Positions 1,257 through 60,829 of a DNA stretch of 64,000 nucleotides are shown one piece after another. A model generated the notes under the pieces. It was not told the origin of the DNA. It saw only the letters and a list, made by a program, of their open reading frames with translations, and made no database searches. Within the stretch, counting starts at the first letter, position 1. Every line of letters begins with the position of its first letter. Made by a program: the position numbers and the translations under genes. Location: the NCBI GenBank assembly GCA_030390025.1, contig CM059432.1:1922001-1986000 (forward strand), written 5' to 3'. This DNA is from Squalus acanthias (taxonomy: Eukaryota).

Positions 1257-1432
1257 GGTTATAGTCCAACAGCTTTATTTGAAATCACAAGCTTTCGGAG
1301 CGCTGCTCCTTCACCTGACGAAGGAGCAGCGCTCCGAAAGCTTGTGATTTCAAATAAAGCTGTTGGACTATAACCTGGTGTTGTGCGACTTCTCACATTT
1401 GTCCACCCCAGTCCAACACCGGCATCTCCACA
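1257..1432 (+). mobile_element. ORF-less fold-back insertion, probably derived from a Penelope-type terminal repeat, with 14-bp TSD
   Basis: tcttgaatatactc duplicated at 1243-1256 and 1433-1446; perfect 56-bp inverted repeat 1257-1312 / 1320-1375. Confidence 0.85.
1311..1346 (+). ncRNA. Minimal type I hammerhead ribozyme motif
   Basis: UCAC-CUGACGA-A-GGAGC-agc-GCUCC-GAAA-GC-UU-GUGA: intact core, stem I UCAC/GUGA, stem II GGAGC/GCUCC, palindromic AGCU in place of stem III. Confidence 0.75.
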
Positions 1433-3840
1433 TCTTGAATATACTCAACGACTGAGCCTCCACAGCCCTCTGGGGCAGAGAATTCCAAAGATTCACCACC
1501 CTCTGAGTGAAGAAATTTCTCCTCATCTCAGTCTTAAATGGCCGACCCCTTATCCTGAGACTGTGACCCCTGGTTCTAGACTCCCCAGCCAGGGGAAACA
1601 TCCTCCCTGCATCTACCCTGTCAAGCCCTCTCAGAATTTTGTATGTTTCAATGAGAGTTTCAATTACAACAGCGATTACACCTCAAAACTAAAATACTTC
1701 ATTGGCTGTAAAAGCCCTTTGGGACGTCCTGAGGTGGTGAAAGGCGCTATAGAAAGGCAAGTTCCTTCTGTTTATATCCTGATTATAATCCTTTGCCCAG
1801 CGAGCTCTCACTACACCCAGTTAATGTAAAGCAAATCTCTCTCTCCACGCCGATGCTTGTGACACATGCGAGCGTGCATTGAAAGCTTTATCTTGCAATA
1901 GGCGGAGGCACATTGCTCCGACTGCTATCAGCAGTCTGCTTCTTCTGTCAGCTGATAGCGAGAAGTTAAAGTGGGTCTTTCCAAACGATTTGACTGCATT
2001 ACGAAGCTTTTAAAGTGAGGTGAAGGTGGAGGGAATTCAATAGAAAGCTGACACATTCTGGGCAAGCGAAGGCCCCAGACAGACACGAAAGATGACTGAA
2101 AGTAAACACGGCAGATTCCAAATTAGCAACAAAAAAAACACAGGGCACAGCGCTTTCGATTAAAAAATAATAATAATGGCCGTGGTAGTTTGGGGGCGGG
2201 GGGGGGGGGGGAAATGTGTGTGTGTGGGGGGAGCAGGCACATCCTATTTTCTTGAAAAACCCGTCTCGTGTCGGGAGAGAGCAGGGCGGGAAGAGGAAGT
2301 GAGGATGGAGACATGCAGGCGCGACACCCCATGCCTGCGACTTGCAGCACAGTTCAGCTGGCCCACGGGGAACAGAGCAACCGCACTTTTAGCTGATGAT
2401 TTATAATTTGGCGGCATTAGATGGATCAATTAAAATGGGGAGACTAAACAGCCACGGAAAACCCACCGGAGCAAAGTCAATAAAACCAGGACTGTTCCCC
2501 TCGCCCCCACCCCCGCCCCATCACCGCCCCACCCCCTCTCCACCAAACGCCTGGCCAGTTTAACTTCAGCTGACAAGAAGTGGGGAGAGAAGTGGGAAAA
2601 TGCGTCCGATATGCCAGCGTGTTTTTTACTTCTTCATTGACCTGCCTTTCCAAAGTGACATTAAACAGAATCGGCGAACTCCAGTTCACAAGGTTCACCT
2701 CCAGATTCCTGATGAAATATTTAATAAATCTAGCAGACAACCAACTCTTAAACGACGGGTGGGTTATTAATGGGCTGGGTCTCGTCTGCACACCTCTTGG
2801 CAATACTGATGGGACCCTCACCCACCCGAGTGGGGGGGGGGGGGGAGCAGGTGGACAGAGAGTGGCGGGGAGCAGGAGGGGCAGTGGAACAAACAAGAGA
2901 GAGAGAGAGAAAAGTATTGCACTTGTATTTTCTTTTTAAGACAAAGGAACATTTGGACGAAGGAGGATCTACCATGCGGTATCTCGAGATTTCTTAATAG
3001 AAATGACATTTCCCACAGTGCATGCCAGAGTTCCAGTCAGACAGCAGCACGCTGGCCAGAAACCTGCTCGCTCAGTGTGGGGGGGCCAGGCCAGATTAAC
3101 ATAATTTGACGCCACACGGTCTTTGAAGCAAACTCAATATTTCAGCAGAAATAAAAGCAAGAGAGAGAGAGAGAGAGCCCAGACATTTTTTTTCCCCAGG
3201 AATATTTCTCTCCCCTGCCCCCCCTCTCTGTCCACCCCCTCCTAAAATGCCATGGCTGCTCTTCCACCCCTCCCCGCGCACACAATCACATCGAGAGAGC
3301 TTCGTTATCTCAACTAAATCAGAACTGGTTGCATTTGGGAACGTCATTAGGAAGCGCGATCCAATACAGATGGGAGTTTTTGGCAAATCTAGCTGACTTC
3401 AGAGCATTCGCCTCATAAAGCACATTTAGCCTTCCTTCTTTTTTTCCAAATCGTTATCTTACACCATTAACCAAACAAAATAAAATAATTAATAATCATT
3501 TGCACAATAAGCTCAGTGCACCGCACCTCTAGATTTACCTGTTTGGGAACAACACAACATGTCGATTCAGATTTATACAGAATTAGGTCACAAATGTTAT
3601 GGTGGCAGCATCCATTACACAGTATTTACAGCACAGAAACAGGCCATTCGGCCCCACTGGTCCGTGCCGGTGTTTCTGCTCCACACGAGCCTCCTCCCAC
3701 CCCTCTTCATCTCACCCCATCAGCATGTCCTTCTATTCCTTTCTCCCTCATGTGTTTATCTCGCTTCCCCTTGAATACATCGATGCTATTCACCTCAACC
3801 ACTCCCTGCGGTAGCGAGTACCACGTTCTCACCACTCTCT

Positions 3841-9160: not shown

Positions 9161-9456
9161 TTTTACAAATGCTGCAGTTTTGGTTTGTGTAAGAATTTTA
9201 CTAGCCAAGAAATAAACTACCGAGGGGGAGCTACTGCAGACCCTAGTCAATAATCCCCCAAGCAGAGGTGATTAATTTACAATAAATTTATAGGTAAGCA
9301 GATTTTTTTTGAAACCTTGCTTTTATTCTTTGCTGCGGTAACTGTGCCAGGTCACAGTGGGCTGCACAGGTGAACAGATGGGCTGTTGGGAGGTTCAGAA
9401 TTCGAGGAGAATGTCTGGATGTTCAAAGACAATTCAACACAGTGAGGCTATGCTCA

Positions 9457-10352
9457 TGGCTGCTTCGCCAAGTTGGTAGCAATCTTGCCTTTGGATAAGA
9501 AGGTTGAGGATTCAAGTCCCACTCCAGAGACTTGAGCACATAAAGCGAGGTTGACATTCCAGTGCAGTGCTGAGGGAGCGCTGCACTGTTGGAGGGGCAG
9601 TACTGAGGGAGCACCGCACTGTCGGAGGGGCAGTACTGAGGGAGCGCTGCACTGTTGGAGGGGCAGTACTGAGGGAGCACCGCACTGTCGGAGGGGCAGT
9701 ACTGAGGGAGCGCTGCACTGTCGGAGGGGCAGTACTGAGGGAGTGCTGCACTGTCGGAGGGGCAGTACTGAGGGAGCACCGCACTGTCGGAGGGGCAGTA
9801 CTGAGGGAGCGCTGCACTGTCGGAGGGGCAGTACTGAGGGAGCACCGCACTGTCGGAGGGGCAGTACTGAGGGAGCACCGCACTGTCGGAGGGTCAATAC
9901 TGAGGGAGCGCCGCACTGTCGGAGGGGCAGTACTGAGGGAGCGCTGCACTGTCGGAGGGTCAATACTGAGGGAGCGCCGCACTGTCGGAGGGGCAGTACT
10001 GAGGGAGCGCCGCACTGTCGGAGGTGCCGTCTTTCGGATGAGACGTTAAACCGAGGCCCCGTCTGCTCTCTCAGGTGGACGTAAAAGATCCCATGGCCAC
10101 TATTTCGAAGAAGAGCAGGGGAGTTCTCCCCGGTGTCCTGGGGCCAATATTTATCCCTCAACCAACATCACTAAAACAGATGATCTGGTCATTATCACAT
10201 TGCTGTTTGTGGGAGCTTGCTGTGCGCAAATTGGCTGCTGCGTTTCCTACATTACAACAGTGACTACACTTCAAAGAGTACTTCATTGGCTGTGAAGCGC
10301 TTTGGGGCGTACGGTGGTCGTGAAAGGCGCTGGAGAAATCCAAGTCTTTCTT
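9457..10352 (+). mobile_element. Deu-SINE carrying an internal 33-bp tandem array
   Basis: Degenerate tRNA head, array 9565-10024, Deu core and tail. Confidence 0.9.
9565..10024 (+). repeat. 33-bp minisatellite, ~14 units, SINE-derived
   Basis: Unit cagtactgagggagcrcygcactgtcggagggg; 11-aa periodicity in the ORF track. Confidence 0.95.
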
Positions 10353-11769: not shown

Positions 11770-13378
11770 CACATCCATGCAGGCATTAAGTTGCAATCCA
11801 GGCATTACGTTGACCCCAATGCCTCCTCCTCCTTTTCTAGCACCGTCACCTCTGCTGTATCTCAGGGGGACCAACATTGGTCAGACTCCCTTCAATTACA
11901 TGCTACCCCTTGGCAATGCTTCCACATGTGGGGGTCTAAACCAGGCGTACATTGATGACTGTATTGGTGCCGTTTCCTCCTCTCACCCTGAACTAGATCA
12001 TTTCAATCACTTTGCTTCCAATTTCCACCCTTCCCTCACCTTCACATGGTCCATCTCCGACTCTTCCCTTCCCTTCCTCGACTTCTCTGTCTCCATTTCT
12101 GGGGATAGGCTATCGACCAACATCCACTATAAGCCCACTGACTCCAACAGCTACCTGGACTACACTTCCTCCCACCCCGCTTCCTGTAAGGACTCTATTC
12201 CATTCTCCCAGTTTCTCCGTCTCCACCGCAACTGTTCTGACGATGCCACCTTCCATACTAGTGCTTCTGGTATGTCTTCCTTTTTCCTCAACTGAGGATT
12301 CCCCTCTACCGTGGTTGACATAGCCCTCGACTGTGTCCGTTCCATTTCCCACATTTCTGCTCTCACCCCTTCCCCTCCCTCCCGGAACCACGATAGGGTT
12401 CCCCTTGTCCTCACCTTTCACCCCACCAGCCTCCACATTCAATGGATCATCCTGCGCCATTTCCGCCACCTTGGGTATGATCCCACCACCAAACACATCT
12501 TCCCCTCACCTCCCCTTTCAGCATTCCGAAGGGACCGCTCCCTCCGCGACACCCTGGTCCACTCCTCTATCACCCCCAACACCCCTTCCCCTTCGCCCGG
12601 CACCTTCCCGTGCAAGCGCAGGAGATGCAACACCTGCCCTTTTACCTTCTCCCTTCCCACTGTCCAGGGCCACAAACACTCCTTCCAGGTGAAACAGCGA
12701 TTTACTTGTACTTCTTGCAATTTAGTAACTGTATTCGCTGCTCACGATGCGGCCTCCTCTACATTGGGGAGACCAAACACAGATTGGGTGACCGCTTTGC
12801 GGAGCACCTCCGTTCAGTCCGTAAGCGTGACCCCGAGCTTCCGGTCGCCTGTCACTTTAATTCTCCGCTCCACTCCCACTCTGATCTCTCCGTCCTCGGC
12901 CTCTTACACTGTTCCAATGAAGCTCAACGTAAGCTCGAGGAACAGCACCTCATCTTTTGATTCGGCACTTTACAGCCTTCTGGACTTAACATCGAGTTCA
13001 ACAATTTCAGACTATAAATTGGCCCCTGTATTTCTTTATTTTTTTCTCTTGTTTCCTCACATGGTAGCTGTTAATGTTGCTGCCATCATCATCCACACAT
13101 CATCTAGAGTCATCTTTTGTTTCTTCACTTGTTCCATTACCATCTCCTTTTGCCTTGCACCATCATCCCTTTTGTCTCTTAATCTCTCCTGCCTTCCACC
13201 CTATCACAGACCTTCCCTTTGTTCTTTCCTCCCCTCCTCCCTGCCCCTGCTTAAAAATCTCTCCTCTCTAACCTTTCCCAGTTCTGATGAAGGGTTCGAC
13301 CCGAAACGTTGACTCTGTTTCTCCTCCTCGATGCTGCCTGACCTGCTGAGTGTTTCCAGCACTTTTTGTTGTTATTTT
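11770..13378 (+). mobile_element. Penelope-like retroelement (Neptune-type), 5'-truncated and disabled: RT C-half, Cys-rich linker, GIY-YIG endonuclease, terminal repeat
   Basis: YIDDCIG, LPFLD, YKPTDS..YLDYTSSHP (RT); FPCKRRRCNTCPF linker; CIRCSRCGLLYIGETKHRLGDRFAEH..PVACHFN (GIY-YIG); in-frame TGA at 12293 and 12958, frameshift near 12725; natural stop ~13017. Confidence 0.92.
13280..13314 (+). ncRNA. Minimal type I hammerhead ribozyme motif in the Penelope terminal repeat
   Basis: AGUU-CUGAUGA-A-GGGU-ucg-ACCC-GAAA-CG-UU-GACU. Confidence 0.8.
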
Positions 13379-22538: not shown

Positions 22539-23850
22539 AATATTCCCACAAACAGAGTAAGGACTCTCTAAGACCTGAAGTAAAAATTGAAAGGGCCGAT
22601 ACCTAAACAGCACCAAACTCTGATCTTCCAGGGACAGAAGAGACTAGAATTGTAAACATATTGGAACAGTGGTGAATTAGAGTTTGGGACTCCCCCGCGG
22701 AAATTAACGTTAAGCTCCAACACACTGCCAAATTCCACTGACGCAATCGAACCGAAGTGACTGTCGCAGCCAATGCACCACTTTGAATAAGCGGAAGCAA
22801 CCAAGCATGAAATGGCACTAATATCTCTGCGATTGAAACACTGTCTGAACGAAAGGTGGAAAAGTTGGAGATTTATTAATTTGCTGAAACGGAGGCTTTG
22901 GTCGTCCGTAATGGGTATCACTTTCACAAGAGCACAAAGAGTACTCTGGGGGGAGGGGAGGGGAGGGGAGGGGAGGGGCTGGGGGGCAGTGGAAGGTGGT
23001 TTGTACATCGAGTAATTGTTTTTTTTTACTGGTACCTACTTGTCCTTTTACAGCATGTGCATTTGAAACAGACAGGGTTGACAGGTCTCACACATGTACC
23101 TGCAACTCAGACTTTATTGAAGTTTCATGATTTATAATAAGCATAAACTTTAGTACATACACATGCACAATCACCTTAACATTAACATTATTATACTCGT
23201 ATGCCTTTGTTACCTCTAGACTTGACTATTCCAACGCACTCCTGGCCGGCCTCCCACATTCCACCCTACGTAAACTTGAGGTCATCCAAAACTCGGCTGC
23301 CCGTGTCCTAACTCGCACCAAGTCCCGTTCACCCATCACCCCTGTGCTCGCTGACCTACATTGGCTCCCAGTTAAGCAATGCCTCGATTTCAAAATTCTC
23401 ATCCTTGTTTTCAAATCCCTCCATGGCCTCGCCCCTCCCTATCTCTGTAATCTCCTTCAGCCCCACAACACCCGGAGATATCTGCGCTCCTCTAATTCTG
23501 CCCTCTTGAGCATCCCTGATTATAATCGCTCCACCATTGTTGGCCGTGCCTTCTGTTGCCTGGGACCCAAGCTCTGGAATTCCCTCCCTAAACCTCTCCG
23601 CCTCTCTACCTCTCTTTTGTCCTTTAAGATGCTCCTTAAAACCTCCCTCTTTGACCAAGCTTTTAGTCACCTGCCCTAATATCTCCTTATGTGGCTCAGT
23701 GTCAAATTTTGTTTGATAATCGCTCCTGTGAAGCACCTTGGGACATTTTACTACGTTAAAGGCGCTGTATAAATACATGATGTGGAGATGCCGGTGTTGG
23801 ACTGGGGTGGACAAATGTGAGAAGTCGCACAACACCAGGTTTATTTGAAA

Positions 23851-23887
23851 TCACAAGCTTTCGGAGCGCTGCTCCTTCGTCAGGTGA
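23851..23887 (-). ncRNA. Minimal hammerhead ribozyme motif (minus strand)
   Basis: Reverse complement reads UUCAC-CUGACGA-A-GGAGC-agc-GCUCC-GAAA-GC-UU-GUGA. Confidence 0.75.
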
Positions 23888-24049
23888 AGTGAAGAGATGC
23901 ATATAGGCACAGCATATATAGTCAGAGAGCACAACCAGATGATTACAGTTAATCTTTCTAACTGCCCTTTATCACACCTCGGCAGAGAGATAATCACGGC
24001 AATCAAAGGTGTGGACTATATATGCTGTGCCTATATGCATCTCTTCACT

Positions 24050-24086
24050 TCACCTGACGAAGGAGCAGCGCTCCGAAAGCTTGTGA
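24050..24086 (+). ncRNA. Minimal hammerhead ribozyme motif (plus strand)
   Basis: tcac-ctgacga-a-ggagc-agc-gctcc-gaaa-gc-tt-gtga. Confidence 0.75.
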
Positions 24087-24667
24087 TTTCAAATAAAGCT
24101 GTTGGACTATAACCTGGTGTTGTGCGACTTCTTGTGCGACAAGTTGCTGTTGTTGTTTAATACTTATAAATCTTTTCCTAATATCCTGGGCAAAAGCCCA
24201 AAAGGGATGATGTTCAAATAAATGCCGATTTTGGAAAAAAATTGTCTATATTTTAAAAAGGACATTTCTGGTCACTGCAACATAAAGCATCATGGGTAAG
24301 AATCAGGTTTATTATTAGCTTTTAGTCCCTGTTTTGTTAAGATCAAAATATCCAATTTTATTCCTATACTTTAACACAGTTTATCTCTTCAAAGGAAGAG
24401 GCCTATAATGTTGCCAAAAAGAATAGTAAGCCTCAGGATTGGGAGGATTTTAGAATTCAGCAAAGGAGGACCAAGAAATTGGTAAAGAAAGGGAAAATAG
24501 AATGTGAGAGTAAACTAGCGAGAGACATAAAAACAGACTGAAAAAGCTTCTATAGGTATGTAAAAAGGAAAAGATTAGCGAAAGTAAATGTGGATTCCTT
24601 ACAGGCTGAGACAGGAGAAATTAAAGTGGGGAATAAGGAAATGGCTGGGAAATTAAACAAATACTTT

Positions 24668-25386
24668 GGGCTGGATTTTCAATGACCCGTGGAGTCGGGT
24701 TTGGAGGCGTGTGGGGGGTTAAAGTTGCAGATTCGGGGGTCCCGACCCCACACAATTTTGACAAAATCGGTCGCGGGGTTCCCGACTCCGTCCCGCCTCC
24801 AAGAGGTGGGAGAGGCCATTAAAGCCCTTAACAAGCCCTAAATTGGCTCTGTAATGCCATTTTGAAACGTTTTAGCTAGTTTAACCCTTTTCCGACGTGA
24901 AGTACGCCTGATGTGAAACACGCCAGTGAAACCTGGCAGGAGCACAAGTGGATAGCTGACTATCAGCTGCAGGTCCACTATTACAACGGAGATGTGATGA
25001 AGGTAGTAGTAGTATTAGGTCTGAAAGTCGCCTCTGATGCTGCTGCATTGAATGTCTTCAGAGACTGCCTGGGAGGACTTGGTTGCAAAAAAAATTCTCT
25101 CTCTCACTCTCACTCTGAGATGCTGCTCATTTTGCATCCAGGTCCTCTCACAGCAAAAGCCAGGCAATCTCTGAGACCAGGCAGTCTCTGACCTGCAATG
25201 ATGACATCATCAGAGGCGACTTTCAGACTGAAACCACTAATTGGTTCATGGGTTCCCACATGCTGGAACTCAATTGCCCAATTAAGTGAAAATTGCATCA
25301 ATCTCCCACATCCAATTGCAGGCGGGTGGATAACACAAAATGCGGATGACACAACCCCAACCCGCCCCAGTATCAAAATCCAGCCC
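24668..25386. mobile_element. Non-autonomous TIR element (Harbinger-like), 719 bp, inside CR1
   Basis: TIR gggctggatttt / aaaatccagccc; TSD ttt; removal restores CR1 aaatactttgtgtctgtcttcac. Confidence 0.85.
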
Positions 25387-26160
25387 TTTGTGTCTGTCTT
25401 CACGGAAGAAGATGCAAAAAACTTCCCGGAAATAGTGGAGAACCAAGGGTCCAGCGAGAATAAGGAACTGAAAGAAATTAGTATTAGTAAAAAAATAGTA
25501 CTGGAGAAATTAATGGGACTGAAAGACAATAAACCCCCTGGACCTGACAGCCTACAACATAGGGTTTTGAAAGAGGTGGCTATAGAGATAGTGGATGCAT
25601 TGGTTGTCATTTTCCAAAATTCCATAGATTCCTGTGGATTGGAAGGTAGTAAATGTAACCCCACTATTTAAGAGAGGGAGAGAGAGAAAATGGGGAACTA
25701 CAGACCAGTTAGCGTGACATCAGTAGTAGGGAAAATGCTAGAATCTATTATTAAGGACGTGGTAACAGGGCACTTAGAAAATAATAATAGGATTGGGCAG
25801 AGTCAACACGGATTTATGAAAGGGAAATCGTGTTTGACAAATCTGTTAGAGTTTTTTGAGGTTGTAACTAGCAGAATAGATAAGTGGGAACCAGTGGATG
25901 TGGTGTATTTGGATTTTCAGAAGGCATTCGATAAGGTGCCACACAAGAGGTTATTAAACAGAATTAGGGCTCATGGGATTGGGGGTAATATACTAGCATG
26001 GATTGAGGATTGGTTAACAGACAGAAAACAGAGAGTAGGAATAAACGGGTCATTTTTGAGTTAGCAGGCTGTAACTAGTGGGGTACCGCAAGGATCAGTG
26101 CTTGGGCCTCAGCTATTCACAATCTACATCAATGATTTGGATGAGGGGACCAAATGTAAT

Positions 26161-26902
26161 GGCCCAAAAATTCGTGAGGGAGCCTTCGTGCGAGGGTAAG
26201 GCTTCCCCGCGATCTCTCACTGCGCACTGGCTTTTTCAGTCCGAGCTCGCACGAACTTGATGTTCTGGACAGCTGCTGTGCTGGGCTTGCGTATCCCACA
26301 GGCGCAGTTAATTCGTGCGAGCTGTGGGATCACGTGACTCAGTTAGAGCCAATGGCAGCACACCATCTTTCATTCATAGCTTTCACATAAGTGCTGAGAA
26401 AGCTATGAATCTATACCCCCCAAAAGAACAGCTAAACCTCAATTAATTTTTTTTAAAAACCCATCACATTAATAAAATAAGTATAGTTAAATAAATTAAC
26501 CATTTTAAACAAAAAATTAAATTTTTGAAAAAATTTAAAATCTTTTAAAAAGTTATAAAAATAAACTTACCTGTCTTTAAAGTCTCTAAAAAAGATATAC
26601 CTGTTAAAAAAAATTCAAAATAATACTTAATTAACTACTTACCTTGTTAAAAGAGGGTCTTACGCCTCCTTTCTTTATGTCTAAAATGTTCCATGCTTAC
26701 CTGCGCGTTCAAAGCACTAAGTGCACTGCGTGCGCGCAGCCTGTAGCGCGCACGCGGTTCACCTAGGAACCGCCCCCTTTTGAATTCACCAAGTGCCGGT
26801 TTTCAGCGCATGCGCAGTGCATGCAGAAAACCGGCAAGTGGAGACAGAATACGCGAGAGTACACAGTGCGTACTCTCGCGTAGCGGCACTAATTTTTGGG
26901 CC
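26161..26902. mobile_element. Non-autonomous TIR element (Harbinger-like), 742 bp, inside CR1 RT
   Basis: TIR ggcccaaaaatt / aatttttgggcc; flanks aat/att; removal restores tgtaat-atatccaagtttgctgatg. Confidence 0.85.
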
Positions 26903-27014: not shown

Positions 27015-28663
27015 GTATACCAGACTGTTAAGAGAAGTAAGAGAGGAAATAGCAGAGGCTCTGACCATCATTTTCCAATCCTCTCTGGCTACAGGTGTGG
27101 TCAAAATTGAGAGGTCGCACAACACCAGGTTATAGTCCAACAGTTTTATTTGAAATCACAAGCTTTCGGAGCTATCGATCGCCCCTTCCTCAGGTGTGGT
27201 GCCAGAGGACTGGAGAACTGCTAACGTGGTACCGTTGTTTAAAAAGGGAGACAGGGATAGACCGAGTAATTACAGGCCAGTAGTAACCAAACCTCGGTGG
27301 TGGGAAAATTATTGGAAAAAATTCTGAGGGACAGGATAAATCTTCATTTAGAAAGACGTGGATTAATCAGGAACAGTCAGCATGGATTTGTTAAGCGAAG
27401 GTCGTGTCTGACTAACTTGATTGAATTTTTAAGGAGGTAACAAGGAGGGTCGATGAGGGTAGTGCGTTAGATGTAGTCTATATGGATTTTAGCAAGGCTT
27501 TTGATAAGGTCCCGCATGGCAGACTGGTCATGAAAGTAAAAGCCCATGGGATCCAAGGAAAAGTAGCAAGTTGGATCCGAAATTGGCTCAGAGGCAGGAA
27601 ACGAAGGGTATTGGTTGAAGGGTGTTTTTGTGACTGGAAGGCTGTTTCCAGTGGGGTTCCGCAGGGCTCAGTACTGGGTCCTTTGCTTTTTGTGGTATAT
27701 ATCAATGATTTGGACTTGAACATAGGAAGTATGATTAAGAAGTTTGCAGATGATATAAAAATTGGCCGTGTGGTTGATAATGAAGAAGAAAGCTGTGGAC
27801 TGCAGGAAGATATCAATAAATTAGTCAGGTGGGCAGAACAGTGGCAAATGGAATTCAATCCGGAGAAGTGTGAGGTAATGTATTTGGGGAGGGCTAACAA
27901 GGAAAGGGAATACACAATAAATGGGAGAACACTGAGAAGTGCAGAGGATCAGAGAGACCTTGGTGTGCATGTCCACAGATCCCTGAAGGTAGCAGGACAG
28001 GTAGATAAGGTGGTTAAGAAGGCATACGGGATACTTGCCTTTATTAGCCGAGGCATAGAATATAAGAGCAGGGAGGTTATGCTTGAACTGTATAAAACAC
28101 TAGTTAGGCAGCAGCTAGAATACTGCATGCAGTTCTGGTCACCACATTACAGGAAGGATGTGATTGCACTAGAGAGGGTACAGAGGAGATTTACGAGGAT
28201 GTTGCCTGGGCTGGGGAATTTTAGCTATGAGGAAAGATTGCATAGGCTGGGGTTGTTTTCTTTGGAACAGAGGAGACTGAGGGGAGAACGTATTGAGGTG
28301 TATAAAATTATGAGGGGCCGAGATAGAGTGGATAGGAAGGACCTGTTTCCCTTAGCAGAGAGGTCAATAACCAGGGGGCATAGATTTAAAGTAATTGGTG
28401 GAAGGTTTAGAGGGGATTTGAGGAGAATTTTTTTCACCCAGAGGGTGGTGGGGATCTGGAACTCACTGCCTGAAAGGGTGGTAGAGGCAGAAACCCTCAT
28501 CACATTTAAAAAGTACTTGGATGTGCACTTGAAGTGTCGTAGCCTACAGGGCCATGGACCAAGAGCTGGAAAGTGGGATTAGGCTGGAGAGCTCTTTGTT
28601 GGCCAGCACAGACACGATGGGCCGAATGGCCTCCTTCTGTGCCGTAAACTTCTATGATTCTAA
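27015..28663 (+). mobile_element. CR1 LINE of a second subfamily inserted in the first; 366-aa open RT/C-terminal frame
   Basis: ORF 27482-28582 [31 protein letters not shown]; tail ttctatgattcta. Confidence 0.93.
27102..27196 (-). ncRNA. Solo ~95-bp hammerhead-bearing insertion (variant of the 1257/23778 family)
   Basis: Minus strand CAC-CUGAGGA-A-GGGGC-gaucgaua-GCUCC-GAAA-GC-UU-GUG; caggtgtggt duplicated at 27092-27101 and 27191-27200. Confidence 0.75.
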
Positions 28664-32664: not shown

Positions 32665-34086
32665 ATACTTGCATTTTTACAGCATCTTTCACGACCTCAG
32701 GATGTCCCAAAGCACTTTACAGCCAATGAAGTACTTTTGAAGTGTAGTCACTGTTGTAATGTGGGAAACGCGGCAGGCAATTTGTGCACAGCAAGCTCCC
32801 ACAAACAGTAATGTGATGATGACCAGATCATCTGTTTTTTTAGTGATGTTGATAGAGAGATAAATATTGACCAGGACAGCGGGGAGAACTCCCCTGCTCT
32901 TCTTCAAAATAGTGCCATGGGATCTTTTACATCCACCTGACGGAGCAGACGGGGCCTCGGTTTAATGTCTCATCTGAAAGACGGCACCTCCGACAGTGCA
33001 GCACTCCCTCAGTACTGCCCCTCCGACACTGCAGCGCTCCCTCAGTACTGCCCCTCCGACAGTGCAGCACTCCCTCAGTACTGCCCCTCCGACAGTGCAG
33101 CACTCCCTCAGTACTGCCCCTCCGACAGTGCAGCACTCCCTCAGTACTGACCCTCCGACAGTGCGGCGCTCCCTCAGTACTGACCCTCCGACAGTGCAGC
33201 ACTCCCTCAGTACTGCCCCTCCGACAGTGCGGCGCTCCCTCAGTACTGACCCTCCGACAGTGCAGCACTCCCTCAGTACTGACCCTCCGACAATGCAGCA
33301 CTCCCTCAGTACTGACCCTCAACAGTGCAGCGCTCCCTCAGTTCTGCCCCTCTGACAGTGCAGCACTCCCTCAGTACTGCCCCTCCGACAGTGCAGCACT
33401 CCCTCAGTACTGACCCTCCGACAGTGCAGCTCTCCCTCAGTACTGCCACGACAGTGAAGCGCTACCTCAGTACTGACCCTCCAACAGTGCAGCGCTCCCT
33501 CAGTACTGACCCTCCGACAGTGCGGCACTCCCTCAGTACTGCCCCTCCGACAGTGCAGCGATCCCTCAGTACTGCCCCTCCGACAGTGCGGCGATCCCTC
33601 AGTACTGCCCTTCCGACAGCACGGCGATCCCTCAGTACTGCCCCTCCGACAGTGCGGCGCTCCCTCAGTACTGCCCCTCCGACACTGCGGCACTCCCTCA
33701 GTACTGACCCTCCGACAGTGCGGCGCTCCCTCAGTACTGCCCCCTCTGACAATGCAGCGCTCCCTCAGTACTGCCCCACCGACAGTGCAGCACTCCCTCA
33801 GTACTGCCCCTCCGACAGTGCGGCGCCCCCTCAGTACTGCCCCTCCGACAGTGCGTCGCTCCCTCAGTACCGCCCCTCCGACAGTGCAGCGCCCCCTCAG
33901 TACTGCCCCTCCGACAGTGCAGCGCCCCCTCAGTACTGCCCCTCCGACAGTGCGACGCTCCCTCAGTACCGCCCCTCCGACAGTGCAGCGCTCCCTCAGT
34001 ACTGCCCCTCTGACAGTGCGGCGCTCCCTCAGTACTGCCTCTCCGACAGTGCAGCGCTGCCTCAGTACCGCACTGGAGTGTCAGCC
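32665..34086 (-). mobile_element. Deu-SINE carrying an internal 33-bp array (~33 units); tRNA head absent
   Basis: Tail and Deu core 32665-32985; array ~32985-34070; ends gcactggagtgtcagcc. Confidence 0.9.
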
Positions 34087-34547
34087 ATGGAATAGACAAA
34101 GATCCTTTGGGCCACTGAGAAAGTGCTTTTACATGGTGGCTGTTTAGCACAGTGGAAGGGACATTGTTAAAACGGACTCCCTCGTCCCATGATAACGGAA
34201 TCTATTATGATGATCTTTGCGGGCTATGGGGAGTTGGTGCTTGGGCGTCACCTCTCACTATCCGAACTAAACAAGCATCAAGCGCCTTAAAAGTTCATGT
34301 CGTTTTCACTTATCATTGATGCAAATGCAACTTAATTAATCTCACGAGAGATGTTAATAGTCAAAGGTACAACTTCCAGCAAGCCTCAATCCCCCAAATA
34401 TTCAAGTGTGAACTCTAGAATATTAATTTAGCATTACAGGCTACATTTAAAAAAATTTTTTTATCGGCACCTGGTTGTCACTGGCAAGGCGACTTTTATT
34501 GGCCATCCCGAGTTGCCCTGAGAAAGTGGTGACGTGGCCTTTTCATT

Positions 34548-50548: not shown

Positions 50549-50953
50549 AAGGTGCTGGAATGAGATAAAAAATCATTTATGACATTTTGGGTGTGAGCCC
50601 TTGACCAGAATCGGTTCTGAAGAAGGATACGCCACTCAAAACCTCACACCCTGCCTATCCTCACTGCAGGGACTAACTGGCCATCTGTATCTCTCAGGGA
50701 ATTTTATTTAATATTTCAGACTTCCAGCATTTTCATTTTTTTTTTGTGTCCTTATTGCCTGTCTGCCCTCTCTGGTGGAAAAAGGTTCCATGGCACTATT
50801 CGAAGAAGAGCAGGGGAGTTCTACCTGGTGACCTGGGGGCCAATATTTATCCCTCAACCAACATCATTAAAGAAAGAAGCACATTGCTGTTTGTGGGATC
50901 TTGCTGTGTGAAAATTCAGACCAACAAAGGAGTAGCTGCAGGAAGGAAATGAG

Positions 50954-52350
50954 GCAGTGGAGCTGGCACTGGGACAGCAGTGGAGCCGGCACTGGGACAG
51001 CAGTGGAGCCGGCACTGGGACAGCAGTGGAGCCGGCACTGGGACAGCAGTGGAGCCGGCACTGGGACAGCAGTGGAGCCGGCACTGGGACAGCAGTGGAG
51101 CCGGCACTGGGACAGCAGTGGAGCCGGCACTGGGACAGCAGTGGAGCCGGCACTGGGACAGCAGTGGAGCCGGCACAGGGACAGCAGTGGAGCCGGCACT
51201 GGGACAGCAGTGGAGCCGGCACTGGGACAGCAGTGGAGCCGGCACTGGGACAGCAGTGGAGCCGGCACTGGGACAGCAGTGGAGCCGGCACTGGGACAGC
51301 AGTGGAGCCGGCACTGGGACAGCAGTGGAGCCGGCACTGGGACAGCAGTGGAGCCGGCACTGGGACAGCAGTGGAGCCGGCACTGGGACAGCAGTGGAGC
51401 CGGCACTGGGACAGCAGTGGAGCCGGCGCAGGGACAGCAGTGGAGCCGGCGCTGGGACAGCAGTGGAGCCGGCGCAGGGACAGCAGTGGAGCCGGCGCTG
51501 GGACAGCAGTGGAGCCGGCGCTGGGACAGCAGTGGAGCCGGCGCAGGGACAGCAGTGGAGCCGGCACAGGGACAGCAGTGGAGCCGGCGCAGGGACAGCA
51601 GTGGAGCCGGCACTGGGACAGCAGTGGAGCCGGCGCAGGGACAGCAGTGGAGCCGGCGCAGGGACAGCAGTGGAGCCGGCACAGGGACAGCAGTGGAGCC
51701 GGCACAGGGACAGCAGTGGAGCCGGCGCAGGGACAGCAGTGGAGCCGGCGCAGGGACAGCAGTGGAGCCGGCACTGGGACAGCAGTGGAGCCGGCACAGG
51801 GACAGCAGTGGAGCCGGCACTGGGACAGCAGTGGAGCCGGCGCAGGGACAGCAGTGGAGCCGGCTCAGGGACAGCAGTGGAGCCGGCACAGGGACAGCAG
51901 TGGAGCCGGCACAGGGACAGCAGTGGAGCCGGCGCAGGGACAGCAGTGGAGCCGGCGCAGGGACAGCAGTGGAGCCGGCGCTGGGACAGCAGTGGAGCCG
52001 GCACTGGGACAGCAGTGGAGCCGGCACTGGGACAGCAGTGGAGCCGGCGCAGGGACAGCAGTGGAGCCGGCACAGGGACAGCAGTGGAGCCGGCGCAGGG
52101 ACAGCAGTGGAGCCGGCGCAGGGACAGCAGTGGAGCCGGCACTGGGACAGCAGTGGAGCCGGCACTGGGACAGCAGTGGAGCCGGCACTGGGACAGCAGT
52201 GGAGCCGGCACTGGGACAGCAGTGGAGCCGGCACAGGGACAGCAGTGGAGCCGGCGCAGGGACAGCAGTGGAGCCGGCACTGGGACAGCAGTGGAGCCGG
52301 CGCAGGGACAGCAGTGGAGCCGGCACTGGGACAGCAGTGGAGCCGGCGCA
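50954..52350 (+). repeat. 23-bp minisatellite, ~61 units
   Basis: Unit cagcagtggagccggcRcWggga. Confidence 0.97.
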
Positions 52351-53949
52351 AGGAACAGCCGATATACTTCTAAGTCAGGGTGGTGTGTGACTTGGAGGGG
52401 AACTTGGAGGTGGTGGTGTTCCCATGCGCCTGCTGCCCTTGTCCTTTTTTAAGCTGGATAAGCACATGAGGGAGAAAGGAATAGAAGGATATGCTGATAG
52501 GCTGAGATGTAGTAGGGTGGGAGGAGGCTGGTGTGGAGCAGTTGGGCCGAATGGCCTGTTTCAGTGCTGTCCATTGTATGTAATCATAGAATGATACAGC
52601 GTAGGAGGCCATTCGGCCCATTGTGCAACAGCACAATTGAAATCATTTTAAGTTTAGTATTGAACCCAAACACTAGTATCCCTGTTCAACTATAAACAAA
52701 TCGCCTGAAGTTCGAGACCGATTAACTGTCCCTCCTTATCAGCCCCCTGTTTTTACGTTGAGGCCCAATCACCAGCTACCGACCGGCACTGAGGAGATTG
52801 ATTCTTAATTCTGCTTTCCATATATTACTGCGTTACTTCCAGCTGCCATTAGAAATGAATTGCAGTCGTTTGTCCTTGAATGGTCATTAAATATTCCATT
52901 ACCATTACGGTATTCGTAGGTAAAAGCTATTTGTGAAGGATTTATGTTAGTTTGCGGCACCCGAATTTAAATATTCGCTCATTCAAGGAGTTGTCCTCAC
53001 AAAATTGAAGAGGACTACAGTAATTGAACAATAATGGATGAAAATGTACGTGGAAAAAAAAGCGTGCTTAGATAAGTAGCTTTATAAAAGTCTAAAGCAT
53101 GCATTTTCATGAATTGCTGTGTGCTCTGGCTAATATAGAAGGCAATATCTTGTGTTAATACACACTGGTTCTTTTTCTCTGTCTGAAAGATTGGGATATG
53201 GAGGCAATAACCAGCTCCGCAGGGTGGTTGTGCGATTTACTAATTACCCGACGCAGACAAATGCCAAAGTCCGGAGATTATGCTGAGTACAGAATCCCTG
53301 TGGTGGGCAACATCAGTGATCTGCTTCCCCCACCTTTCACCTTCCAGGGAAAAACCAGAAACAACACCATTGAGTCCGTGCCTCCAGCACCCGCTGCACC
53401 CCCCCCCCGCCCCACCCACCCCCCAACGCTCTCTCTCTTCCCCCCTTTCCCCCCTTTTTTTCATCGGGGAAGGGGACGGTGAGTTACTCTTCCTTCGGGA
53501 AGTGGCTGCCCATTTCCCCTTGTCCTCGAGTCAACGGGAGGTCCATCGGCCTGGCAACAAGGCGGTTTTATGTCAACATCTTCGTCCTCCCGCCCGAATT
53601 GCGAAAGGAAAGGGAGGGAGAGAGAGAGAGAGTGTGGGCCAGAAACACTCCTGCTGAGAGCTGGATAACCCATCGCACTTGTGACCTGGCAGCTTCTGCT
53701 GCAAGAACAAGCTGGGCCTCAGACTGACGGCAACACAATATCCGAAGCAACCCTCTTAATTGCCGTGCTGTTGGGATTCGGTGCGAGAGAGCACAGTTAC
53801 ACAGCGCAACACTGATTACATTTAAAAAAAAAATGGCAATGGATTACATTCTCCCCCAGTGTTCGGAAAGGTGCATGAAGATGTTAAAACAGCTTCTGAT
53901 GCCTTGTCTCTTTTTGCTCCTAGGAAACTATGGGCAATTCGAAGCAGTT

Positions 53950-59597: not shown

Positions 59598-59675
59598 TTA
59601 AATTCCTTTATGTTGCATCTAGGAATGCATCAGTTTTGTTTTGCATGTGTATACCATGCTTGTCAGTTTCTGATG

Positions 59676-60207
59676 GGGCACTGTCACCCACGAACCCCAC
59701 ACCCCAGGACAGGGCACTGTCACCCACGAACCCCACACCCCAGCACAGGGCACTGCCCCCCAGGGACCCCAGCACAGGGCACTGCCCCCCAGGGACCCCA
59801 GCACAGGGCACTGCCCCCCAGGGACCCCAGCACAGGGCACTGCCCCCCAGGGACCCCAGCACAGGGCACTGCCCCCCAGGGACCCCAGCACAGGGCACTG
59901 CCCCCCAGGGACCCCAGCACAGGGCACTGCCCCCCAGGGACCCCAGCACAGGGCACTGCCCCCCAGGGACCCCAGCACAGGGCACTGCCCCCCAGGGACC
60001 CCAGCACAGGGCACTGCCCCCCAGGGACCCCAGCACAGGGCACTGCCCCCCAGGGACCCCAGCACAGGGCACTGCCCCCCAGGGACCCCAGCACAGGGCA
60101 CTGCCCCCCAGGGACCCCAGCACAGGGCCCTGCCCCCCAGGGACCCCAGCACAGGGCACTGCCCCCCAGGGACCCCAGCACAGGGCACTGCCCCCCAGGG
60201 ACCCCAG
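59676..60207 (+). repeat. 29-bp minisatellite (~16 units) preceded by two related 36-bp units
   Basis: Unit gggcactgccccccagggaccccagcaca; leading units gggcactgtcacccacgaaccccacaccccagsaca. Confidence 0.96.
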
Positions 60208-60829
60208 TCCGTCACTGCTTGCCGCAGGAAAGTTGAGGAGAAAAAAGGGGAAAAAGGAATATGAATTAAAAAATCATATTTTATGCTTAGAGATTTATTA
60301 CGATAAAAAGGATTAATTTGCGGGTTAAAATGTCAGCCCTTTCTATCCCTTTAAAATCTCGTTACATTTTGCATATTCCGTTTCCCTTTTCCATTATTAT
60401 TGAGATCGTAAAGGAGCTTCCAGTCACTGGCTGATCATTTTGTCATCAAATTATATTACCTTTATACTCCCTTCCTCCCGCCGGTATTAAAAAAAAAACT
60501 GCTCTAATCCTGAAAAACTGCACAAGAAACACTTTGCAGTCCACAAGATGCTGGAAATGTCACAGCAAGTCAGCTATACAGCAGTAAATAAACACCAGTG
60601 CCCAACTAACAACCAATTATTTTTGCAAGGCGCCTCACCTAGAACTGACAACATTCCACACAAGTGGTTTCTGGAAGTGGAGTCAGAGTGGCAGGGCTGG
60701 CAACTGATCTTGACAGGAGTGGGACCGGGTATGAATGACTGCCTTGCCCAGGAATGGTAGGTACGCTGCCCACCCAAACATAGGAAGCTGCACGAACACA
60801 GACCCGATATCATCGTTCAGACGGCACCT

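Follow-up and report, generated by a model that had tools for sequence, protein, structure and literature searches.

A palindromic cassette with two opposed minimal hammerhead motifs is very probably the stump of one young Penelope-like retrotransposition event

The window analysed here, a stretch of 64,000 nucleotides from Squalus acanthias, is repeat-rich animal DNA, about 61% of which matches itself. The initial annotation had described an insert of about 360 bp in an L2 tail with perfect inverted arms of 84 bp, and this description was confirmed. The arms, at 23840-23923 and 24014-24097, pair with zero mismatches and form the longest perfect inverted repeat of the cassette, whereas the longest inverted repeat found in base shuffles of 23000-25000 (n=200) was 13 bp. 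A further 20 perfect pairs lie outside the arms (23820-23839 / 24113-24132), beyond the point where the left arm has a 15-nt deletion. The element-derived sequence spans 23778-24132; beyond it come the templated filler and what may be a 3-nt target duplication. The two sides of the cassette differ, a 42-nt tail being present on the left only. No ORF was seen in it, and all three frames have a stop between the hammerhead core and the tail end. Repeats of the window that we take to be of L2 and CR1 type are so named below. The cassette and its insertion site are made up as follows:

23191..23777 (start approximate), plus strand: 3' part of the older host LINE, presumably L2-type, ending at the target site
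23775..23777, plus strand: ACA, left copy of the possible 3-nt target duplication, recurring at 24139-24141
23778..23819, minus strand: 42-nt tail, a 3' extension present in the long copy only
23778..24015, minus strand: long copy, very probably the 238-nt 5'-truncated 3' end (pseudo-LTR) of a Penelope-like element (PLE), comprising left arm and spacer, with continuous depth in three runs
23851..23887, minus strand: hammerhead motif (minimal type I) of the long copy, by motif anatomy and descriptor
23924..24013, minus strand: 90-nt hairpin loop, by contig depth the long copy's upstream portion and no separate spacer module
24014..24015, no strand: inversion junction with 2-nt microhomology (GA), the native match running to 24015 and the inverted copy starting from 24014
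24014..24132, plus strand: short inverted copy of 119 nt, 5'-truncated and without tail, by inverted-repeat comparison
24050..24086, plus strand: hammerhead motif (minimal type I) of the inverted copy, cleavage predicted after 24082
24132..24140, plus strand: templated filler of 9 nt, identical to 24120-24128 and overlapping with the target duplication
24139..24157, plus strand: right ACA, then the remaining L2 tail

The empty site is visible in public contigs, hundreds of whose loose ends continue into the L2 tail behind 23774 and 23777, and it is read through in three of the five other L2 tail copies found within the window. The ACA duplication is so short that chance or microhomology could possibly explain it. 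Features private to the long copy are the 15-nt deletion, which falls between 23839 and 23840, and changes at 23929, 23933 and 23934. The 90-nt loop has no significant fold when taken alone (z -0.75).

Each arm had been said to carry a complete minimal hammerhead, and both motifs were indeed found at the places claimed. In the plus-strand motif, stem I is formed by 24050-24053 / 24083-24086, and the core CUGACGA (24054-24060) is followed by an extra A at 24061, by stem II (24062-24066 / 24070-24074), by GAAA (24075-24078) and by a palindromic AGCU, with U 24082 preceding the predicted cut. The mirror copy reads from 23887 to 23851 on the opposite strand, and in both copies stem II is 5 bp long with a 3-nt loop. 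Numbering follows the established hammerhead consensus, and the label is based on the consensus features that Cervera and De la Pena listed (PMC4209133). The minimal type I features present are the conserved core, the extra base after A9 (between 9 and 10.1), G10.1-C11.1 and palindromic 15.2-16.2. A minimal-hammerhead descriptor matched five times in the window, twice within the cassette at 24054 (plus) and 23883 (minus), as against no match in each of 30 shuffles. The ribozymes had also been called intact; this holds for the motif, which is complete, but no Rfam hammerhead model matches, there being no match in the window at the gathering score and no hammerhead among the four matches at E<=10. 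MIR821 and MIR946, two Rfam candidates, were rejected because their scores lie far below gathering and their matches reflect the hairpin only. The arm order confirms that on either strand an antisense copy precedes the ribozyme. Per strand, the cassette holds a single hammerhead and no same-strand tandem units, the nearest same-strand motifs being 3.3 kb away on the minus strand and 10.8 kb away on the plus strand. For a hammerhead dimer, the computed intermolecular helix is 6 bp (-6.5 kcal/mol). Contig variants at 23896-23907 reach up to 48%; over 23778-23886 no substitution is listed (a loop II insertion only), and the 3' flank is equally invariant.

To follow the cassette beyond this locus, four public runs were mapped onto 23690-24040, an interval that includes the left arm and the spacer and reaches 27 nt into the right arm. 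X1 and X2 are DNA runs of the best-matching organism, X2 possibly being the window's own sample, and X8 is a putative RNA run, its RNA status being a guess; X21 (raw reads of a related organism) gave 11 reads, too few for use. Summed contig depth over 23774-24013, a quantity that is not copy number and is drawn from contigs that drop rare variants, was 1.9x10^5 to 3.5x10^6 in X1 and X2, the X1 values resting on about 55% of the run. Depth is unbroken over this interval in three runs, so that left arm and spacer form a single native piece on the minus strand. The bin 24002-24013 has depths of 306,165, 190,961 and 5,489 in X1, X2 and X8, respectively, whereas bin 24026-24037, which requires the inversion junction, has 0, 7.85 and 0. 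An edge effect does not account for this drop, because depth in the left edge bin is still 195,726 and 536,375. The value of 7.85 in X2 fits a single locus, as the listed X2 pieces span depths of 3-10.9; none of the 24 pieces listed spans the junction. Behind 24015 the contigs switch to other sequence as a loose end (26 records in X1, 16 in X2), and the native element is therefore longer and the copy in the cassette 5'-truncated. Thus, the left arm and spacer belong to a very abundant repeat that runs natively beyond 24015, and the 24013/24014 inversion junction looks single-locus.

Among the 15 joints listed (of 49), three change strand, all of them elsewhere than the cassette junction. The strand-change joints 23814/23890 and 23962/24001 have depths of 135 and 54.6 in X1, as compared with 14-33 for the listed L2-flank pieces; they are possibly recurrent inversion hot spots or duplicated loci, and some inversion breakpoints of the PLE family may recur.

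The window holds two further copies of the same family and the remnant of another PLE:

1257..1433, no strand: second palindromic insertion of the family, with 56-bp perfect arms, a 7-nt loop, a 4-nt microhomology and a 14-nt target duplication
27101..27196, minus strand: third family copy, diverged and single, truncated at the hammerhead, with a 10-nt duplication overlapping the element ends
~11850-13360, strand not given: broken PLE remnant of another family, with the C-terminal part of an RT, a CxxC-type linker, a GIY-YIG look-alike and a hammerhead core at 13284

The palindrome at 1257-1433 contains one complete hammerhead only (core at 1315, plus), and its stretch 1309-1393 is 100% identical to 85 nt of the cassette. 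Its microhomology sits at a native mini-hairpin of 4 bp next to the hammerhead core (loop 1313-1319), its tail is one-sided, and its target duplication encloses both arms. The centre, arm length and short-arm end of this palindrome all differ from those of the cassette. The copy at 27101-27196 has motif changes at N7, in one stem II pair (to G-U) and in the loop only, this being the one copy compared. The presence of two whole ribozymes in the cassette is thus a matter of the chance position of the inversion, since the sister palindrome completes one and the third copy ends at the hammerhead. As side observations, the sister palindrome is the cleaner of the two and a good test case for cDNA snap-back, and the third copy has an 8-nt loop II and a 5' end that overlaps the target by microhomology. 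The remnant at ~11.9-13.0 kb shows look-alikes of HTH_animal and GIY-YIG (Atlas scores 0.97 and 0.96, to be taken as leads), and it has a minimal hammerhead of its own, with the core at 13284 and helix III palindromic, which differs from that of the cassette. Pfam gave no matches on four frames of this remnant and L2, and neither did a structure-sequence search. The CxxC-type linker of the remnant presumably points to Neptune.

Other repeats of the window were noted in passing. Within a CR1 fragment, the stretch 24670-25385 carries nested inverted repeats of 24 nt (25019-25042 / 25205-25228), with 15 nt inside, and is bracketed by a 23-nt inverted repeat (24657-24679 / 25375-25397); it looks like a small DNA transposon. 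Two adjoining CpG-rich short palindromes with arms of 22 and 16 nt, in an otherwise unique stretch at 26786-26882, are probably an inner portion of a MITE. At 50850-52450 and 59620-60260 lie long tandem arrays that are GC-rich and contain open frames in both orientations, and tandem arrays with a shared short unit are found at 9420-10080 and 32900-34200.

We consider it very probable that the cassette is the stump of one young retrotransposition event by an abundant Penelope-like element. A PLE origin had been proposed before, and four features, all of them non-coding, support it. The geometry is inverted, with a long copy on the minus strand adjoining an inverted copy on the plus strand, both 5'-truncated. 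The tail is one-sided, as it is in the sister palindrome. The pseudo-LTR carries a hammerhead, the descriptor matching in both arms. Finally, target duplications are short and variable or replaced by microhomology, and poly(A) is lacking: the duplication is 3 nt here, which is weak, and 14 nt and 10 nt at the sister copies. The identity of the arms and of the 85 nt shared with the sister palindrome bears out the young age that had been suggested. A protein search for an ORF beginning at the tail (a 40-aa stretch, for which the search is weak) returned one candidate and none at E<=0.01. Exact-pattern scans for relatives gave no match in viral sequences, in metagenomes or in one genome scan; two matches in bacterial genomes were rejected as chance, having no similarity to the window. 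In the papers searched, no account of this PLE family was found, although it may be listed in the supplements to Cervera 2014 and Li 2026, and in the literature on sharks, Penelope and the hammerhead ribozyme the word 'shark' was found only as the ribozyme's name.

The initial annotation had gone further, taking the palindrome for a young non-autonomous, ribozyme-only family; such a propagating unit would be MITE-like or retrozyme-like. The perfect arms, the lack of an ORF and the young age speak for such a unit, as do the palindromic form of two of the three family copies in the window and the depth of some other inversion joints, which exceeds that of a single locus. Nevertheless, the junction depth of 0, 7.85 and 0 against 10^5 in the adjacent spacer, the native upstream continuation of the repeat and the different centres of other palindromes argue strongly against it, and retrozymes require same-strand tandem hammerheads, while those of the cassette are opposed. 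A MITE-like element, having the same ends and the same internal junction at many loci, is largely refuted by the single-locus depth and by the different centre of the sister. We therefore regard a propagating unit as very improbable. The initial annotation had itself held that palindromes with varying breakpoints would mark insertion by-products, and this is what was found in the sister palindrome and the other strand-change joints. Slightly less improbable, though still highly unlikely, is an inverted arm that arose after insertion, by inverted duplication at the DNA level or by a second, independent insertion alongside. The private deletion of the left arm, missing on the right, and the repair-type filler at the right junction would fit such a history; yet both arms sit within a single target site, the two L2 flanks fit together exactly, host sequence is nowhere mirrored, and at 1257-1433 both arms lie inside one 14-nt target duplication.

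A host function, be it a regulated cleavage switch or a selected source of hairpin RNA, is extremely unlikely. Read-through RNA would fold into a stable hairpin (-230.5 kcal/mol, z -21.8), and small RNAs from PLE copies have been described in rotifer and fly (PMC3846280). On the other hand, no host gene was seen, with none of 150 scanned open frames matching Pfam (of 175 in the window, the other 25 being frames of the second PLE together with some that are short or of low complexity); the inversion junction has zero depth in X8, the putative RNA run whose RNA status is a guess; opening the ribozyme faces a barrier of 68 kcal/mol with no near partner for a dimer fold; and this young insertion shows no signs of conservation. 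An artefact of the assembly or of a library fold-back has an equally minute probability. Inverted PLE structures are known to trouble assemblers (PMC8557442), and the junction was not seen in X1, but deletion, tail and filler make the arms unequal, the flanks restore the empty L2 site and do not mirror each other, and in X2 the depth past the junction is 7.85.

As the stump of a PLE insertion, the cassette is a fresh instance of an already published layout, both its geometry and its opposed hammerheads being in print. Cervera and De la Pena reported in 2014 (PMC4209133) that dual minimal hammerheads occur on opposite strands at distances of 100-700 bp, and linked them to truncated PLEs, and the pair in the cassette is about 170 bp apart. 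As in the minimal hammerheads of metazoan PLE pseudo-LTRs, which there lie mostly in truncated copies, the motif is of type I, without helix III, with a 4-bp stem I, an extra base after A9, G10.1-C11.1 and palindromic 15.2-16.2; unlike them, it has a stem II of 5 bp rather than 7-8 bp, and the opposed pairs of that paper are from Schistosoma. An inverted 5'-truncated copy and a one-sided tail are typical of PLEs (Craig 2021, PMC8557442; curation guide, PMC8969392), and published insertions likewise show head-to-head 5'-truncated copies with a tail at one end, a short or absent target duplication and a microhomology junction (Arkhipova 2013, PMC3846280; Craig 2021, PMC8557442). In contrast to these, the cassette keeps only the last 238 nt, all of it pseudo-LTR with no ORF seen, and its 42-nt tail is slightly longer than the published 30-40 nt. 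PAc, a Poseidon element of Anolis (Frangieh 2024, PMC11167929), resembles it in having a hammerhead just upstream of the 3' end, an AT-rich target and a tail, but the PAc ORF starts inside the hammerhead, whereas all frames of the cassette stop between core and tail end. The hammerhead of this lizard PLE needs the element protein and is dispensable for insertion in vitro. Non-LTR retrozymes (Cervera 2020, PMC7229834; Li 2026, bioRxiv 10.64898/2026.07.22.740005) are also ORF-less, of about 300-360 bp, of type I and PLE-related. However, they consist of head-to-tail repeats whose same-strand, mostly canonical hammerheads release circles, and the cassette is head-to-head and single; with one hammerhead per strand, the cassette was rejected as a non-LTR retrozyme.

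With this in mind, one may propose an origin for the cassette. The element endonuclease would have nicked an AT-rich site in the L2 tail, and reverse transcription would have begun at the tail end and halted after about 238 nt, leaving the long copy whose anatomy is seen. Joined to it at the 2-nt microhomology is an inverted duplicate of part of this end, which would have been made in the same event, after which the right end would have been repaired with the short templated filler. Within this explanation, the most likely source of the inverted half is fold-back of the cDNA and copying upon itself, to which we give about an even chance; a second nicked strand that primed a second cDNA on the element RNA is a serious but lesser candidate. 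In the two palindromes the long arms end at nearly the same point (within 1-2 nt) and the short arms 18 nt apart, and for this reason the evidence leans to fold-back. The 15-nt deletion of the left arm has no counterpart on the right and points to the alternative, unless it arose later; under fold-back it must postdate the insertion. Palindromes at such junctions were read by Arkhipova in 2013 as self-priming on an antisense template (PMC3846280), and both this model and the 7-nt loop at 1313-1319 fit cDNA fold-back. The PLE protein studied by Frangieh in 2024 cuts and extends both target strands in vitro, starting at two sites that bound the tail (PMC11167929), so that priming from both strands would be allowed and could yield inverted copies. 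The way in which PLEs make inverted ends is listed as unresolved by Craig 2021 (PMC8557442), and the available literature on Penelope and twin priming showed no evident model in which priming at two nicks gives rise to PLE inversions.

On this account, the two hammerheads would be present only through the location of the motif in the duplicated pseudo-LTR, and the copy would be dead, having no ORF, ribozymes that are opposed and not tandem, and a read-through hairpin of about 104 bp that, as computed, blocks ribozyme folding. In computed folds of the full palindrome, ribozyme stem pair probabilities are 0.0 on both strands, which supports the earlier proposal that the ribozyme is sequestered in a long hairpin, and forcing these stems open costs 68.1 kcal/mol. 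Taken alone, the long copy forms stem II with a probability of about 0.96 and stem I with about 0.6, and the short copy prefers another fold. The proposal of a switchable cleavage unit fares poorly, given this cost and a published test in which cleavage by a single minimal hammerhead was undetectable and that by dimers was low (PMC4209133). Because of the closed stems, the energy penalty and the lack of a same-strand partner nearer than 3.3 kb, the cassette is best seen as silenced and not switchable. If transcribed, it could yield dsRNA and possibly be a substrate for ADAR or Dicer.

As a single locus, the cassette is of little importance, being a dead retroelement fragment, and such stumps are an annotation trap, as they resemble microRNA precursors or MITEs. 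One may speculate, although the odds are clearly against it, that fold-back stumps are routine for this family, as two of the three copies in the window would suggest, and that thousands of them, when read through, could brake the family by near-perfect hairpin RNA. If so, the insertion mechanism itself would build a brake, by way of hairpin RNA directed against the element's 3' end and ribozyme, and the junctions of the stumps would tell cDNA snap-back from priming by both nicked strands. As a class, young stumps of this kind record how Penelope-like elements build their inverted ends.
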